Notes under the pieces: model-generated | Seen by the model: only the letters and a program-made list of their open reading frames with translations | Databases searched by the model: none | Told to the model about the DNA's origin: nothing | Program-made: the position numbers and the translations under genes | In this document: in pieces, positions 1,365 through 64,000 of the stretch | How the letters are laid out: each line of letters opens with the position of its first letter | Numbering within the stretch: the first letter of the stretch is position 1 | Source of the DNA: Nannocystis sp. | GTDB taxonomy: Bacteria > Myxococcota_A > Polyangia > Nannocystales > Nannocystaceae | Assembly (NCBI RefSeq): GCF_016714285.1 | Contig: NZ_JADJNN010000008.1 | Coordinates: 4,669 to 68,668 of the forward strand | Reading direction: 5' to 3' | DNA length: 64,000 nucleotides

Positions 1365-1871
1365 CGAGCAGCAGTATGTGGGTGGCGCGCATTGGACTGC
1401 AATGCTCGTGCTGGGCTCGGGCTGGGCTCGTGCTGGGCTCGGGTGGGCGACGCGGGGCGAGGCTGCCTGGGCCGGGGAGGGGGCCGACGGACTGTGGGGC
1501 CCTGCGACGCGGGTCCTCCCGGGGCACGTGCTCGCCGCCCATCTGTCCCGATGGACAGGTTGATTTCACCGACCCTGGGGTCGCGGGGACGGGCGGCCGA
1601 GGGGCGTCTGCGCGCGAGCCCCGGGTCCTCCCGCTGCGCCCTCGCCGTCGGCCCCTTGTCCCCGGGCGGACAGCGTCGGCGCCCCGCTCGGTGCGGGCGT
1701 GGTGTGGCACGCGCGAGTGCTTGTCGGTCGTGGGGCCCCCGCTCACCGGCCCAGGCAGCCTCGCCCCGCGTGCTCGGTCGGCGAGGATCGGGAGCGGCAG
1801 TTGGGGCGGGGGCCTTAAAAGGTCGCGGCCCGAAGCGGGAAGCTTCAGGCCGGTCGACGATCTGCTTGCTG

Positions 1872-1945
1872 TCGGGGCGAGAGGATTCGAACCTCCGACC
1901 CCCTGGTCCCGAACCAGGTGCGCTACCAGACTGCGCTACGCCCCG
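1872..1945 (-). tRNA. tRNA-Pro (anticodon CGG)
   Basis: Cloverleaf folded by eye on the reverse complement: acceptor CGGGGCG/CGCCCCG, U8 A9, D-stem GCGC, anticodon stem CCTGG/CCAGG with loop TTCGGGA (anticodon CGG), T-stem GGAGG/CCTCT, T-loop TTCGAAT, discriminator A. CCA is not encoded. Confidence 0.9.
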
Positions 1946-2041
1946 AGGAGGAGGGTGTTTATAGGAGCCCCGGGCGCTTGTCAAAGGCTTTTCGCTGCCA
2001 TCTGGCTGCGGGTGCGATGGGGCGTTAGGCTGCACGCCGCG

Positions 2042-60826: not shown

Positions 60827-62614
60827 ATGAGCTCGGTGCGCGAGCCGGCGATCGACGTGCAGGCGCGGACGCTGGTGTCGGCCTCGGATCGCCAGGCGCG
60901 TGGCGAGGCGGCGGCGGTGCCCGTCGGTGAGGACCGGACGCAGGCGGCGGGGCCCGTGGAGGGGCGAGTCGAGGGCGCGGGCGCCGAGGTGGCGGAGCTC
61001 GAGCCGGGCGCGGTGATCGCCCGCTATCGCATCGTCGGCAAGCTGGGCGCGGGCGGGATGGGCGTGGTGTACCGGGCCCACGACGCGCAGCTCGACCGCG
61101 AGGTGGCGCTCAAGCTGCTGCGCGTCGGCGAGGACGGGACCGAGGGGCGCACCCGCATGCTGCGCGAGGCGAAGGCGGCGGCGAAGATCCGGCACGCGAA
61201 CGTGGTGACCGTGTACGACGCGGGCGAGGCGTTCGGGCGGGTGTTCATCGCCATGGAGCTGATCGACGGGATCACGCTCAAGGCCCACTTTCGCGGCCGC
61301 AGGCGCGGCTGGCGGGAGGTGGTCGAGGTGATGCTGGGCGCGGGTGAGGGCCTGGCCGCGGCGCACGCGGTGGGGCTGGTGCACCGCGACTTCAAGCCCG
61401 ACAACGTGCTCGTCGAGGTCGGCGGGCGGGTGCGGGTGCTGGACTTCGGGCTGGCCCGGCCGGCGATCGACGTCGACGGGCCGACGGTGCGATCGGGCGC
61501 GGGCGGGCCGGGCGGAGCCGGCGGCGACACGGCGCCGATCCTGCGGACGCTGACCCAGACGGGCACGCTGGTCGGGACGCCGGCTTACATGGCGCCGGAG
61601 CAGCACCTGGCGCGGGCCGTGGACGCGCGCTCGGATCAGTTCGCGTTCTGCGTGACCTGCTTCGAGTGCCTGTATGGGCAACGACCGTTCGCCGGCGACA
61701 CCCAGGCGGAGCTGACGATGAACGTGGTCGACGGTCGGCTGCAGGCGCCGCGCGAGCGGGGCGACGCGCCGATGGAGCTGCTGGCGGCGCTGCAGCGCGG
61801 GCTGTCGGTGCACCCGGCGGACCGCTACCCGGCGCTGGCGGATCTGCTGACGGAGCTGCGGGCGATCGTTCGCCGCCACGAGCCGCGCGATCGCAAGGGG
61901 CTGATGATCGCGGCGGGGTTGATGCTGCCGCTGATCGCGGGGGCGGCGTTGTACGTCGGGTCGGAGCCGGAGACGCCGGCGCAGGTCGTGCCGCCGACGG
62001 TGACGGAGACGACGCGGCACGAGGAGGTCGCGCCGCCGGTCGAGGCCCTGACGCCGACGCCGAAGCCCGTGGGGATGGCGCTGGGCCAGCCCAAGCACGT
62101 GGACGCGGCGGCGCTGGCCGAGCTGCTCGGGGAGATCGTGCCGAAGGGGATGAGCGTCACGCACGCGCCGGAGGGGCTGTTCCTGGCGGGCGACCGGGCG
62201 AGCCGCTGGAAGGGGGCGGCCGAGCTGCTGCTGGCGACGATCGACGGCGCCTACGCGCAGCGCACCAGCTCGCTGCTGCTGACGCAGGTGCCGACGCCGG
62301 ACGGGTCTTGCGGGGTGTACCTGCTCGAGGGCGAGGACTTCGCGGCGCGGGTGAAGGCGATCCACAAGCTGCCGGGGGCGACCCGCGTCGGGTCGAGCCT
62401 CGCGCTCGGGGTGGTGCTGGCGATCGGCGACAAGAATCTGCCCGACGCGGTGAAGAAGCTGGTGCGCGAGGCCAAGGCGCCGAAGTTCCGCGGCTGGTAC
62501 TTCATCAACGACAAGATGGGCGACCAGCGCATGGACTTCCCGACGCTCGCGGCCTGCGAGACGGAGGAGGCGATCTGGTACTCGGTCAAGGGCCGCTGCA
62601 AGGGCGTGAAGTGA
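60827..62614 (+). CDS. Ser/Thr protein kinase with C-terminal domain
   Basis: ATG 60827. Motifs YRIVGKLGAGGMGVVY, ALK, HRDFKPDN, DFGLA, GTPAYMAPE. One TM helix (LMIAAGLMLPLIAGAALYV), then a ~200-aa C-terminal domain. Confidence 0.85.
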   Translation: MSSVREPAIDVQARTLVSASDRQARGEAAAVPVGEDRTQAAGPVEGRVEGAGAEVAELEPGAVIARYRIVGKLGAGGMGVVYRAHDAQLDREVALKLLRVGEDGTEGRTRMLREAKAAAKIRHANVVTVYDAGEAFGRVFIAMELIDGITLKAHFRGRRRGWREVVEVMLGAGEGLAAAHAVGLVHRDFKPDNVLVEVGGRVRVLDFGLARPAIDVDGPTVRSGAGGPGGAGGDTAPILRTLTQTGTLVGTPAYMAPEQHLARAVDARSDQFAFCVTCFECLYGQRPFAGDTQAELTMNVVDGRLQAPRERGDAPMELLAALQRGLSVHPADRYPALADLLTELRAIVRRHEPRDRKGLMIAAGLMLPLIAGAALYVGSEPETPAQVVPPTVTETTRHEEVAPPVEALTPTPKPVGMALGQPKHVDAAALAELLGEIVPKGMSVTHAPEGLFLAGDRASRWKGAAELLLATIDGAYAQRTSSLLLTQVPTPDGSCGVYLLEGEDFAARVKAIHKLPGATRVGSSLALGVVLAIGDKNLPDAVKKLVREAKAPKFRGWYFINDKMGDQRMDFPTLAACETEEAIWYSVKGRCKGVK

Positions 62615-62676
62615 CCCGGGCTGGCCCCCGGGACATGCGCCGAAGGACATGGCAGATCGGACATGTCCTCGCGGCC

Positions 62677-64000
62677 ATGTTGATCGCGGGCTGCGCGGCG
62701 CGGGGCAAGGGGACGGCGGCAGCGAGCGCGCCAGCGGCCGAGCAGGCGGCGACGGGCGGCGGGGCGGCGATCGCTGCGTGCACGCAGCAGGCGGCGGTCG
62801 TGGAGCTGGCGCTCGAGCGGCACGCGGATCGCTACCTGTGGGAGGAGATCGAGGCGCTCGTGCAGCGCTGGGTCGCGGCGGGTGGGGCGGGGTCCGGCGT
62901 CACGGCGGGCGGCGGGACGGCGGGGTCCGGCGTCACGGCGGGCGAGCTCGTGGCCTGCGGGCAGGTGGCCGAGGCGGCCTTGTTGGCGGCGGCGCGGCGC
63001 TGGGCCGAGGCGGGTGCGCGTGGCGGCGGTGGGCAGGACCACGACCTGGCGCAGCGGGCCTACCGGGCGCTGGCGAGCCACTTCCCGGGGGCGGAGCAGG
63101 AGCTGGACTTCGCGTTCGGGCGGCTCGACTGGGCGCGGGCGCTGCGGACCGCGAACGAGCTCGGCGAGCAGACGCTGGCGGCCGAGCTCTACGCGTCGGC
63201 GCAGCAGCACCACGCAGCGGCGCTGCGGCGCGGCGGGCTGCGGCCGGAGCAGGCGCGCATGGCAGCGAGCGAGCAGCTCGAGGCGACGCGGCGGGTGCTC
63301 GACTACCAGGCGGGCTGGCAGCCGACGGCGTGGTCGCCCGAGCCGTGGATCTGCGCGCCGGACCCGGGCGGGCGCTGCGTGACGCGGCCGAGCTCGGCGG
63401 TGACGATCCCGCTGCCGCCGGCCGAGGCGCAGATGCTGGCGGCGTACGAGCTGTACCTGGGGGAGCCGGCGACGCGCGAGCTGCCGGAGGCGGCGACGGT
63501 GGCGGTCGATAGGGCCGAGCTGCTGCTGCGGCACGGTCGGCTGGCGGAGGCGGAGGCGGGGCTGCGCGAGGTGCTGCGGGCGCGCGACGGCGACGCGGTC
63601 GGGGCGCGGGCGGGGCTGCTGCTGCTGCGATCGCTGCAGGCGCGCTGGCAAGATCCGGCGGCCTCGCCGGCCGCGCAGGCGCGGGCGCGGGCGGGGCTCA
63701 TCGCCACCACGAGCGAGCTGCAGCGGCTGCGGGCGTGGCACCTGGCGACCCCGGCGGGCGAGGAGATCCGGCGGGCGACGCCGGGGCTGCGGGCGGCGGC
63801 GCTGTGGCAGGCGGCCGCGGCGGCGCGCGCGAGCGGGGCCTTCGCCGAGTGCGCGCAGGTCCTCGAGGACATGTCCGAAGAGACCGGTCCCGAAGGCCAG
63901 CCGGAGTCGACGCTGCGCTTCGAGGCGGCGGCGTGTCACGAGGAGGGCGGGGCCTTCGCGGCGGCGATCGCCGGCTACGGCGAGTGGCTGCGCCGCTTCG
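62677..64000 (+). CDS. hypothetical lipoprotein, Ala/Arg-rich helical (partial; continues beyond window end)
   Basis: ATG 62677 gives MLIAGCAARG (lipobox LIAGC). Frame 1 stays open to 64000 with protein-like composition. The two other + frames in the track have stops or junk. Confidence 0.55.
   Translation, partial: MLIAGCAARGKGTAAASAPAAEQAATGGGAAIAACTQQAAVVELALERHADRYLWEEIEALVQRWVAAGGAGSGVTAGGGTAGSGVTAGELVACGQVAEAALLAAARRWAEAGARGGGGQDHDLAQRAYRALASHFPGAEQELDFAFGRLDWARALRTANELGEQTLAAELYASAQQHHAAALRRGGLRPEQARMAASEQLEATRRVLDYQAGWQPTAWSPEPWICAPDPGGRCVTRPSSAVTIPLPPAEAQMLAAYELYLGEPATRELPEAATVAVDRAELLLRHGRLAEAEAGLREVLRARDGDAVGARAGLLLLRSLQARWQDPAASPAAQARARAGLIATTSELQRLRAWHLATPAGEEIRRATPGLRAAALWQAAAAARASGAFAECAQVLEDMSEETGPEGQPESTLRFEAAACHEEGGAFAAAIAGYGEWLRRF

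Follow-up and report, generated by a model that had tools for sequence, protein, structure and literature searches.

A bipartite palindrome restricted to the Nannocystis clade, often stacked at a 14-bp period and densest past converging gene ends

In this work we ask what lies behind a short palindrome that recurs along a 64,000-nt stretch of Nannocystis sp. DNA (contig NZ_JADJNN010000008.1, positions 4,669 to 68,668; hereafter the window, meaning this whole stretch), a 74% G+C segment of a bacterial chromosome with genes on both strands. A first-pass annotation had proposed that the 10-mer GGACATGTCC and the 8-mer GGACAGGT belong to one over-represented palindromic family in a myxobacterial genome, and the family proved genuine: GGACATGTCC has 7 copies against 0.06 expected from dinucleotide shuffles (none of 100 shuffles reached 7), and GGACAGGT has 33 against 1.72, which makes it the top over-represented 8-mer of the window (z = 21, order-3 Markov model). 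All seven exact palindromes previously listed were recovered (22735, 27906, 35709, 50329, 52554 within CGGGACATGTCCCG, 62659 and 63867), as were the one-mismatch copies at 27970, 40918, 50315 and 52328, to which we add others at 637 and 47496. The tandem arrays reported are likewise real (10531-10702, 26106-26266, 45734-45817 and 57699-57848). When arrays are collapsed to independent loci, 9 perfect TGTCC-N4-GGACA sites and about 12 plus-strand GGACAGGT sites remain, still far above expectation.

The repeated unit and its range

The unit underlying both words is a 14-bp bipartite palindrome, TGTCC-N4-GGACA, often extended to (A/C)CTGTCC-N4-GGACAG(GT). Distance analysis of the window shows that 16 of the 59 TGTCC pentamers have GGACA exactly 9 nt later; by spacer length, the counts of TGTCC-Nx-GGACA are 16 for N4, 1 for N3, 0 for N5 and 1 for N6, with approximately none in order-3 Markov simulations, while the opposite order, GGAC-N4-GTCC, stands at background (1 copy against 1.25 expected). 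The everted arrangement of the same arms described in the first-pass annotation is present at each place named there, and its proposed spacer of one to five bases gives way to one of exactly four. GGACATGTCC is GGACA directly abutting TGTCC, that is, the junction of two stacked units, and its neighbours at plus or minus 14 nt conserve mainly the half that faces the central unit. Accordingly, 10-mers within three mismatches of the palindrome recur at a lag of 14 in 28 pairs against 1.3 expected, and stacking in this register is exemplified at 62622-62682 (four units), 63853-63890, 50315-50338 and 57693-57758. The spacer sequence is free, with all 25 of the 25 distinct perfect copies differing in their loop and lying in unrelated flanks. 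Compensated double mutants, in which pairing is kept, were looked for among the units as a mark of hairpin covariation and were found at chance level (4/109 against 8/144 in controls). Conserved arms, a spacer of fixed length, free loops and the lack of covariation together point to sequence-specific reading of both arms, and the differing loops and unshared flanks imply that no whole element is being copied, which disfavours transposition.

Syntenic loci of relatives, fetched through HflX homologs, place the word firmly in one clade. In N. punicea, N. radixulma and N. bainbridge there are 6-10 perfect hairpin units and 3-5 perfect palindromes per 21.7 kb, a word density equal to or exceeding that of the window; the word also occurs in two related metagenome-assembled genomes (MAGs; L123 and L128) and is absent from the syntenic Enhygromyxa and Plesiocystis loci. 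Across 154 kb of pooled Nannocystis DNA there are 28 perfect and 57 one-mismatch sites, against 0 perfect and 3 one-mismatch sites in 299 kb of high-GC control loci that include the syntenic Enhygromyxa and Plesiocystis ones. The family is specific to the Nannocystis clade and about 100-fold over-represented. Its occurrence in other species, together with the differing loops and flanks of its copies, also excludes an origin in one local duplication, which had been named at the outset among the findings that would undo the case. Similar phased arrays are found at a further N. punicea locus (L088) and in a different Nannocystis MAG (L097). A contig scan with GGACAGGT-N(4-20)-GGACAGGT-N(4-20)-GGACAGGT matched at least 115 loci in all phyla, mostly generic coding tandem repeats with three Nannocystis among the matches listed, so that the scan is uninformative for distribution and its loci were reused as negative controls; perfect hairpin units occurred solely in a Nannocystis locus among the 115 matches listed.

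Individual sites turn over between Nannocystis species while the family persists. The window is 99.2-99.5% identical, with small indels, to contig JADKFZ010000004.1 of GCA_016717175.1, a Nannocystis sp. MAG. The Lcl_C-domain gene (50494-51792) and the M16 gene pair (56316-59189) are absent from the syntenic L123 locus, yet carry motif units in the window; a metagenome scan with the M16 protein returned one locus of 1.5 kb.

Sites between and within genes

Position relative to genes is the second strong regularity. Across 173 kb with gene calls, cluster density per kb is 5.75 in convergent intergenic DNA, 1.01 in tandem intergenic DNA, 0.46 in divergent intergenic DNA and 0.37 in coding DNA, where three of the pooled loci are syntenic and not independent of each other and the window enters with our own codon-based gene map, cross-checked with existing gene calls where present. 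Despite this ranking, 56 of the 87 clusters (about two thirds by number) lie within genes. Copies had earlier been placed at gene ends, in promoters and in frame inside genes; the first and last of these locations hold, and promoters are a minority location, divergent regions having the lowest intergenic density. The intergenic sites of the window are as follows, with strand given where one was assigned.

1543-1560: perfect hairpin unit, CTGTCC-cgat-GGACAGGT, between the tRNA-Pro gene and the RCC1-repeat gene
26093-26266, plus strand: possibly translated array of seven GGACAGGTC units at periods of 27 and 21 that includes TGGCC-N4-GGACA variants and separates the Coq4 gene from the plus-strand gene that follows
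27893-27995: two inverted 31-nt copies of CCTGGCC-N4-GGACATGTCY-N4-GG.., starting 14 nt past the Peptidase_MA_2 stop
40918-40927: one-mismatch palindrome AGACATGTCC in a divergent intergenic region
50315-50338: two phased units, GGACATGTTC cttt GGACATGTCC, in the divergent region between the response-regulator gene and the Lcl_C gene
55308-55366: a 43-nt unit present twice, both copies containing a perfect CTGTCC-N4-GGACAGGT hairpin, filling a convergent intergenic region and abutting the trypsin gene stop
57693-57851, plus strand: non-coding array of nine GGGACAGGTG-type units at periods of 14, 21 and 22, filling the 150-nt gap between two M16 genes
62622-62682: four units phased at 14 nt, GGACATGCGC cgaa GGACATGGCA gatc GGACATGTCC tcgc GGCCATGTTG, starting 8-17 nt past the Ser/Thr kinase stop

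In general, the intergenic arrays fold far better than shuffled sequence (z = -2.8 to -6), and those behind the kinase and Peptidase_MA_2 genes start 8-18 nt past the stop codons. For example, 27893-27995 folds as one long hairpin at -76.7 kcal/mol (z = -5.2), 62622-62682 folds at -47 kcal/mol (z = -2.8) and 50315-50338 forms a 10-bp hairpin (z = -3.7). The array at 57693-57851, which runs from the stop of the M16 gene at 57849-59189 to the ATG of the M16 gene at 56316-57698 (both on the minus strand), is unstructured as sense RNA (z = +0.34). These locations are kept between species. In all three cultured species (N. punicea, N. radixulma and N. bainbridge) units lie directly past the stop codon of the CLC gene, and the same three share unit-bearing convergent regions between ExbD and a 111-aa gene, between a gene x and the queuosine gene, and between a 194-aa gene and the HU gene, while the exbD leader also carries units in three species. 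At these shared intergenic places the presence of units is kept and their loops and exact positions vary; similarly, L123 keeps the hairpin 3' of the trypsin gene (55308-55366) at the orthologous site, where its loop differs. A scan of these genomes for canonical terminators, with a hairpin and a T-tract, found no more than chance would give, which makes another 3'-end structure plausible.

Two observations touch these regions. The M16 pair shares one reading frame, with one TGA and a stop-free 150-nt array between its members (57698-57851); read-through would fuse both via a Pro-rich linker, and the downstream ATG has no Shine-Dalgarno-like sequence ahead of it. In the convergent region between the 194-aa gene and the HU gene, three Nannocystis species carry beside the motif unit a second, conserved hairpin, GGGCCATGACC-GTGA-GGTCATGGCCC, with a T-rich tail (L125 21340-21400; L130 19995-20040; L131 20745-20790). 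It is a compensated variant of the GGNCATGNCC theme, is followed in N. punicea by the tail TTCTTTTA, and looks like a canonical terminator.

The sites of the window that lie in coding sequence are the following.

623-660: three 10-nt units phased at 14 nt, CGAGCTGTCC ctcg GGACCTGTCC cgaa GCACAGGACC, within the RCC1-repeat gene
10531-10702: in-frame minisatellite with periods of 48 and 21, holding 3 perfect and 3 one-mismatch units, in the P-type ATPase gene (9852-12323, minus)
14547-14580: phased units and a perfect hairpin, GGACATGGTG cgaa CGACCTGTCC tcag GGACAGG, in the gene at 14029-15615 (minus)
22726-22753: two abutting units, TGTCC ctgc GGACATGTCC tttc GGACT, the ATG of the palindrome being in frame with the open reading frame (ORF) at 22604-24358 (plus)
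35694-35732: three phased units, GGCCAGGTAG cgaa GGACATGTCC aaaa AGCCAGCCGG, in the Ala/Pro linker of the E2 acyltransferase gene (..PEGQVAKDMSKKPAG..)
45734-45817: two duplicated one-mismatch units, ACCTGGCC catc GGACAGGT and ACCTGCCC catt GGACAGGT, in a lineage-specific loop insertion of BacA/UppP (..ADDLSDGP..)
46162-46321: five perfect CTGTCC-tccg-GGACAG units on in-frame repeats of 39 nt (one of 27 nt), in the HflX C-terminal tail (AVPEDSSAEHASA repeats)
52319-52351: TGGCC tcga GGACATGTCT ctcg GTTCCTGTCC, in the anti-sigma gene (51858-52733, minus), where its codons ACA GGA .. AGA CAT are rare ones
52554-52619: CGGGACATGTCCCG plus GGACCTGG, then CCATGTCC cgaa GGACAGGA, over the conserved anti-sigma peptide ..PVLRDMVDE..VLRDMS..
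57062-57099: three phased units including a perfect hairpin, GGACCTGCTC caag GACCATGTCC cgga GGACAGCTCG, in the M16 gene at 56316-57698 (minus)
58428-58451: perfect 7-bp hairpin unit, GCGCCTGTCC cggg GGACAGGTGA, in the M16 gene at 57849-59189
63853-63890: three phased units, GCGCAGGTCC tcga GGACATGTCC gaag AGACCGGTCC, in a weakly supported ORF (62800-63999) with no Pfam match

These coding copies exceed what protein sequence and codon usage supply. Under synonymous shuffling that kept each protein and its per-gene codon usage, 0.17 hairpin units were expected against 13 observed (about 75-fold), 0.28 palindromes against 3, and 2.0 GGACAGGT copies against 14. The coding frame is nearly always G GAC ATG TCC or C CTG TCC, the sole one compatible with a G+C content of about 95% at third codon positions (GC3). 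The copies nevertheless use rare A/T-ending codons, which at 35694-35732 reach 0.28 against 0.13 across the whole E2 acyltransferase gene. Most lie in linkers or loops, such as the E2 lipoyl linker, the BacA/UppP loop, a P-type ATPase loop and the HflX tail. A Pro-rich linker carries the motif in L123 and is motif-free in L128, and the L123 ortholog of the anti-sigma gene has no motif at the place matching 52319-52351.

The anti-sigma gene also preserves how a site came about. Its peptide PVLRDM is encoded by CCT GTC CTT CGG GAC ATG in the window and by CCC GTC CTC CGC GAG ATG in L123, and the four differences in this codon run all lead toward the motif, with no insertion. Four point substitutions without insertion in a conserved codon run indicate that at least one coding copy originated in situ. 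In BacA/UppP the word is present in the loop insertion of the window, of N. punicea and of L128, and the peptide encoded there is not conserved. The N. punicea loop holds at least four units in 14-nt register, and a 14-nt period, not being a multiple of three, implies that an array of non-coding type is being translated. Array lengths differ even between the window and the public strain, at 10560 (a 63-nt indel in the minisatellite at 10531-10702) and in the HflX tail, where the protein has 638 aa in the window and 616 aa in the public strain.

BacA/UppP is a single 342-aa ORF in the window (45085-46113) and two overlapping genes (127 and 229 aa) in the public MAG (L129 11848-12859). The split stems from 3- and 5-nt indels at 45745 and 45777, exactly in the motif-bearing insertion, and is either an assembly error or a real frameshift. 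Two ideas about the words themselves were dropped. The ATG within GGACATGTCC does not serve as a start-codon mark, only that at 22739 being in frame while the others lead to poor-GC3 ORFs or to ORFs exceeding their orthologs, and a resemblance to Shine-Dalgarno and anti-Shine-Dalgarno sequences (CACCTGTCC versus CACCTCCTT) found no support.

Several features of the window stand beside the family. Tandem repeats are very dense (84 Tandem Repeats Finder (TRF) rows in 64 kb), and among them are minisatellites that stay in frame within housekeeping genes: the HflX C-terminal tail (46154-46338), the P-type ATPase (10531-10702), the E2 linker (35581-35665) and a 33-nt repeat at 48436-48564 in a response-regulator protein. 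An Rfam scan at the gathering threshold returned two tRNAs and nothing else, and a 97-nt tRNA-Ala(ggc) called by ARAGORN at 10824-10920, within the P-type ATPase gene and lacking Rfam confirmation, is probably a false positive. About 1.7 kb at 19175-20937 has no predicted gene and a visibly lower G+C content; it holds two copies of a 106-nt unit (20001-20203) that contains TGGCAC-N5-GTTCC, which is sigma-54-like, and a degenerate motif unit, as well as 31- and 42-nt repeats (20414-20540). No credible Rfam match was found in 19.1-21.0 kb, a relaxed threshold giving only chance microRNA matches.

Strand asymmetry and decayed arms

The first-pass annotation had also stressed that GGACAGGT favours one strand. 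The bias itself is real, at 30:3 (plus versus minus) in raw counts and about 12:3 by independent locus, and does not go beyond composition, since the skewed sequence alone predicts about 2.8:1. GC skew in the window (+0.18) is strong and uniform, from +0.12 to +0.26 in each 4-kb bin and independent of gene orientation, and G-rich k-mers often outnumber their complements by more than 10:1 (GCGCGGG 134 versus 9). Among the comparison loci the absolute skew is mostly 0.10-0.17 in the Nannocystis clade (including L123, L125, L088 and L097), just 0.04 in L128, and 0.01-0.05 in the syntenic Enhygromyxa and Plesiocystis loci (L126, L127).

Nearly all seemingly solitary GGACAGGT copies have a degenerate left arm 4 nt upstream. 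One example is the following.

16610-16626: decayed unit, TGACC attc GGACAGGT, with its degenerate left arm 4 nt upstream; likewise at 23466, 30617, 37185 and 40006

Read on the G-rich strand, 53 of the 74 single mismatches lie in the TGTCC arm, with T>G at position 3 seen 20 times against 2 for the mirror change and C>T at position 5 seen 11 times against 0. We take this to mean that the C/T-rich arm decays faster on the G-rich strand, so that GGACAGGT survives and produces the strand bias of single arms. The single-arm arrays at 26106-26266 and 57699-57848 would then be local slippage products of such decayed derivatives.

What may read the word

The account that we favour, and hold with about even confidence, is that TGTCC-N4-GGACA serves a lineage-specific dimeric DNA-binding activity as its recognition word; sites of the word would form in situ and be retained chiefly at gene 3' ends, with coding copies as tolerated spill-over. 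A dimeric protein of this lineage would read both arms as sequence, and copies would arise and be renewed in place through point substitution, short slippage or duplication and not through transposition. At gene ends, adjacent units could pair into strong hairpins without a T-tract, where they would most likely act in the manner of repetitive extragenic palindromic (REP) sequences and bacterial interspersed mosaic elements (BIMEs), in one or both of two roles, as transcript 3'-end structures that serve termination or stability and as landing sites for protein. Copies within genes may be tolerated in linkers and loops or written via synonymous choice, and the strand-biased GGACAGGT and its tandem arrays would be derivatives, the C/T-rich arm decaying faster and the surviving arms being amplified by slippage.

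Several points weigh against this account. With about two thirds of clusters inside genes, a 3'-end role is impossible for most of them, and some of the remainder fall between divergent genes (50315, 40918) or in a leader (that of exbD). The direct-repeat arrays at 57699-57848 and 26106-26266 cannot form hairpins, and the lack of covariation argues against selection on structure alone. Motif hairpins share with canonical intrinsic terminators their fold and their position past the stop codon, and the hairpin-plus-T-tract scan called no T-tract after any of them. The density ranking carries the dependence between pooled loci given above. Between the window and the 99.3%-identical public strain, 3 changes fell in sites against 3.0 expected, numbers too small to have power. 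No candidate binding protein was identified in this analysis, and every functional step of the account is one that we infer from sequence.

The family resembles REP/BIME elements in its intergenic niche, and the cyanobacterial highly iterated palindrome HIP1 and uptake sequences in its coding copies and substitutional origin, and falls outside the definition of each. Rickettsia palindromic elements (RPEs) are about 100-150 bp long and are inserted or duplicated as whole units, in frame within genes; mycobacterial interspersed repetitive units (MIRUs), of about 46-101 bp, likewise spread by whole-unit insertion or duplication and occupy the short gaps between operon genes as variable tandem arrays. 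The in-frame Nannocystis units in tolerated loops (BacA, ATPase, E2 linker and HflX tail) recall the former and the variable tandem array between the two M16 genes recalls the latter; unlike in both, the conserved part is a 10-base bipartite word.

The main rival, which we consider unlikely, holds that drive or selection maintains a self-recognition word of the kind represented by HIP1 and by the DNA uptake sequences (DUS) and uptake signal sequences (USS) of Neisseria and Pasteurellaceae, read by a DNA-handling protein. The reader might be an uptake receptor, an orphan methyltransferase coupled to repair, or a nucleoid organiser that prefers TGTCC-N4-GGACA; sites would accumulate everywhere by substitution, and the inverted or stacked copies at gene ends would be secondary, as for the terminator pairs of DUS/USS. 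Clade specificity, an enrichment of about 100-fold in coding and intergenic DNA alike, substitutional origin in conserved codons and the turnover of sites within a persisting family all fit such a word. HIP1 (GCGATCGC) is likewise a palindrome over-represented by one to two orders of magnitude (15-300-fold) within and between the ORFs of one clade (PMC5861425, PMC4390886), embedded in coding sequence and not inserted, with its function unresolved. By the same measure the Nannocystis palindrome is hyper-abundant against a codon-aware expectation, in ORFs and intergenic DNA of a single clade. It differs from HIP1, a contiguous octamer, in being bipartite with a free 4-bp spacer, in its lower density (about one per 4-7 kb), strong 3'-end bias and stacked arrays, and in its phylum. 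HIP1 is defined by the sequence GCGATCGC with cognate orphan methyltransferases in cyanobacteria, and the Nannocystis family, with a different word in a different phylum, is an analogue of HIP1 and not a member. DUS and USS are also clade-specific, accumulate by substitution, form inverted intergenic pairs at gene ends, and have coding copies at poorly conserved positions in a codon-compatible frame (PMC2817400, PMC2397512), and the Nannocystis word matches them in its clade specificity, preferred coding frame, weakly constrained residues and inverted gene-end pairs. They are, however, asymmetric 9-12-mers without fixed-spacer dimers or phased arrays, and the strict 14-bp stacking seen here is foreign to USS, DUS and HIP1. 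Furthermore, a convergent intergenic density 15-fold above that of coding DNA is more than a position-neutral word would lead one to expect.

In its boldest form, which we likewise regard as doubtful, this rival would make the family a genome-wide Nannocystis self word, read by a dedicated dimeric DNA-binding activity and actively written by substitution and 14-bp stacking, with even essential proteins taking it up in their loops. The reader could then serve uptake and self-recognition, methylation and repair, or nucleoid or topoisomerase loading. Were this true, it would be the first HIP1/DUS-class system in Myxococcota, and its architecture, in which a dimer site of fixed spacer is repeated in phased arrays, would be new.

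A REP/REPIN-type (REP doublet forming a hairpin) mobile family, copied as single-stranded hairpins by a transposase like the REP-associated tyrosine transposases (RAYT; IS200/IS605-type Y1), is a rather improbable source of the units. As in the REP/BIME elements of Enterobacteria and Pseudomonads, short palindromes of clade-specific sequence are concentrated at gene 3' ends and convergent junctions, clustered in direct and inverted order with stable transcript hairpins possible, and one inverted doublet (27893-27995) is REPIN-like. A REP family, however, shares stem, loop and flanking tetranucleotide, whereas the 25 distinct perfect copies here have different loops and unrelated flanks, which speaks against copying of a whole element. 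The units, 14 nt long and in strict 14-bp register, are far shorter than known REPs; two thirds of the clusters are intragenic; at least one coding copy arose from point substitutions with no insertion; and no Y1/RAYT transposase gene was seen among the genes identified in the 64-kb window. Of the analogies first proposed, REP-like and uptake-signal-like remain the best, and that of a miniature inverted-repeat transposable element (MITE) is excluded: there is no 50-500 bp body, there are no terminal inverted repeats or target-site duplications, and the 14-nt units have differing loops and a coding copy made by substitution.

It is quite improbable that the units are operator arrays through which a transcription factor or nucleoid-associated protein regulates adjacent genes. 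The 5-N4-5 geometry, with fixed spacing, free spacer and conserved arms, suits a dimeric helix-turn-helix protein of FNR/CRP or GntR type, and some leader or divergent copies, e.g. in the exbD leader of three species and at 50315-50338, are conserved. Operators are few and lie upstream of the genes of a regulon, whereas one site per 4-7 kb amounts to thousands in a genome of 10-13 Mb, most sites are inside genes and many deep within them, and intergenic density is lowest in divergent (promoter) regions and highest past stop codons.

A polar, replication-oriented architectural motif built on GGACAGGT, in the manner of FtsK orienting polar sequences (KOPS) or Chi, had been suggested by the strand counts and is very improbable. 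The G-rich form also lies on the G-rich strand in relatives, and orientation in the window was compared within the one replichore on which it lies. The parent motif is a palindrome, nearly every solitary 8-mer keeps its degenerate partner arm, and GC skew together with strand-asymmetric arm decay accounts for the 30:3 count. That there is no family at all, only a by-product of Leu-Ser and Asp-Met-Ser codon usage with a few local tandem duplications, is the least credible reading, for while the restricted coding frame and the tandem-repeat-rich window favour it, it is refuted by the synonymous shuffles, the Markov and composition counts and the high-GC control loci, and is at odds with the many non-coding copies, the rare codons used, the 9 independent perfect loci each with a different loop, and the enrichment of the same word in other Nannocystis species.

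Together these results are best read as a new family, REP/BIME-, HIP1- or USS-like and centred on gene 3' ends, whose mechanism we infer. As far as we searched it is undescribed, and the first-pass annotation had not recognised it either: papers containing GGACATGTCC concern the p53 half-site or are unrelated, none treating a bacterial repeat family, and a search on Nannocystis with 'palindromic' found nothing relevant. REP, HIP1, DUS/USS and Chi each exposed part of the DNA-handling machinery, and the function of HIP1 has been debated for decades. A second palindrome of this sort, unrelated and again confined to one clade, opens a new way to study how such words are written and kept. Its grammar is unusually precise (a spacer of exactly 4 bp, phasing at 14 bp, marked preference for 3' ends and rare-codon coding copies), and it occurs in cultured Nannocystis species, of which N. 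punicea has a complete genome. For the biology of these bacteria, the word flags likely transcript ends in a group with few canonical terminators and seeds in-frame minisatellites in essential genes, with consequences for assembly and annotation such as the splitting of BacA in a public MAG right at its motif-bearing insert, and its decayed copies provide a built-in read-out of the strand-asymmetric mutation behind the extreme GC skew.

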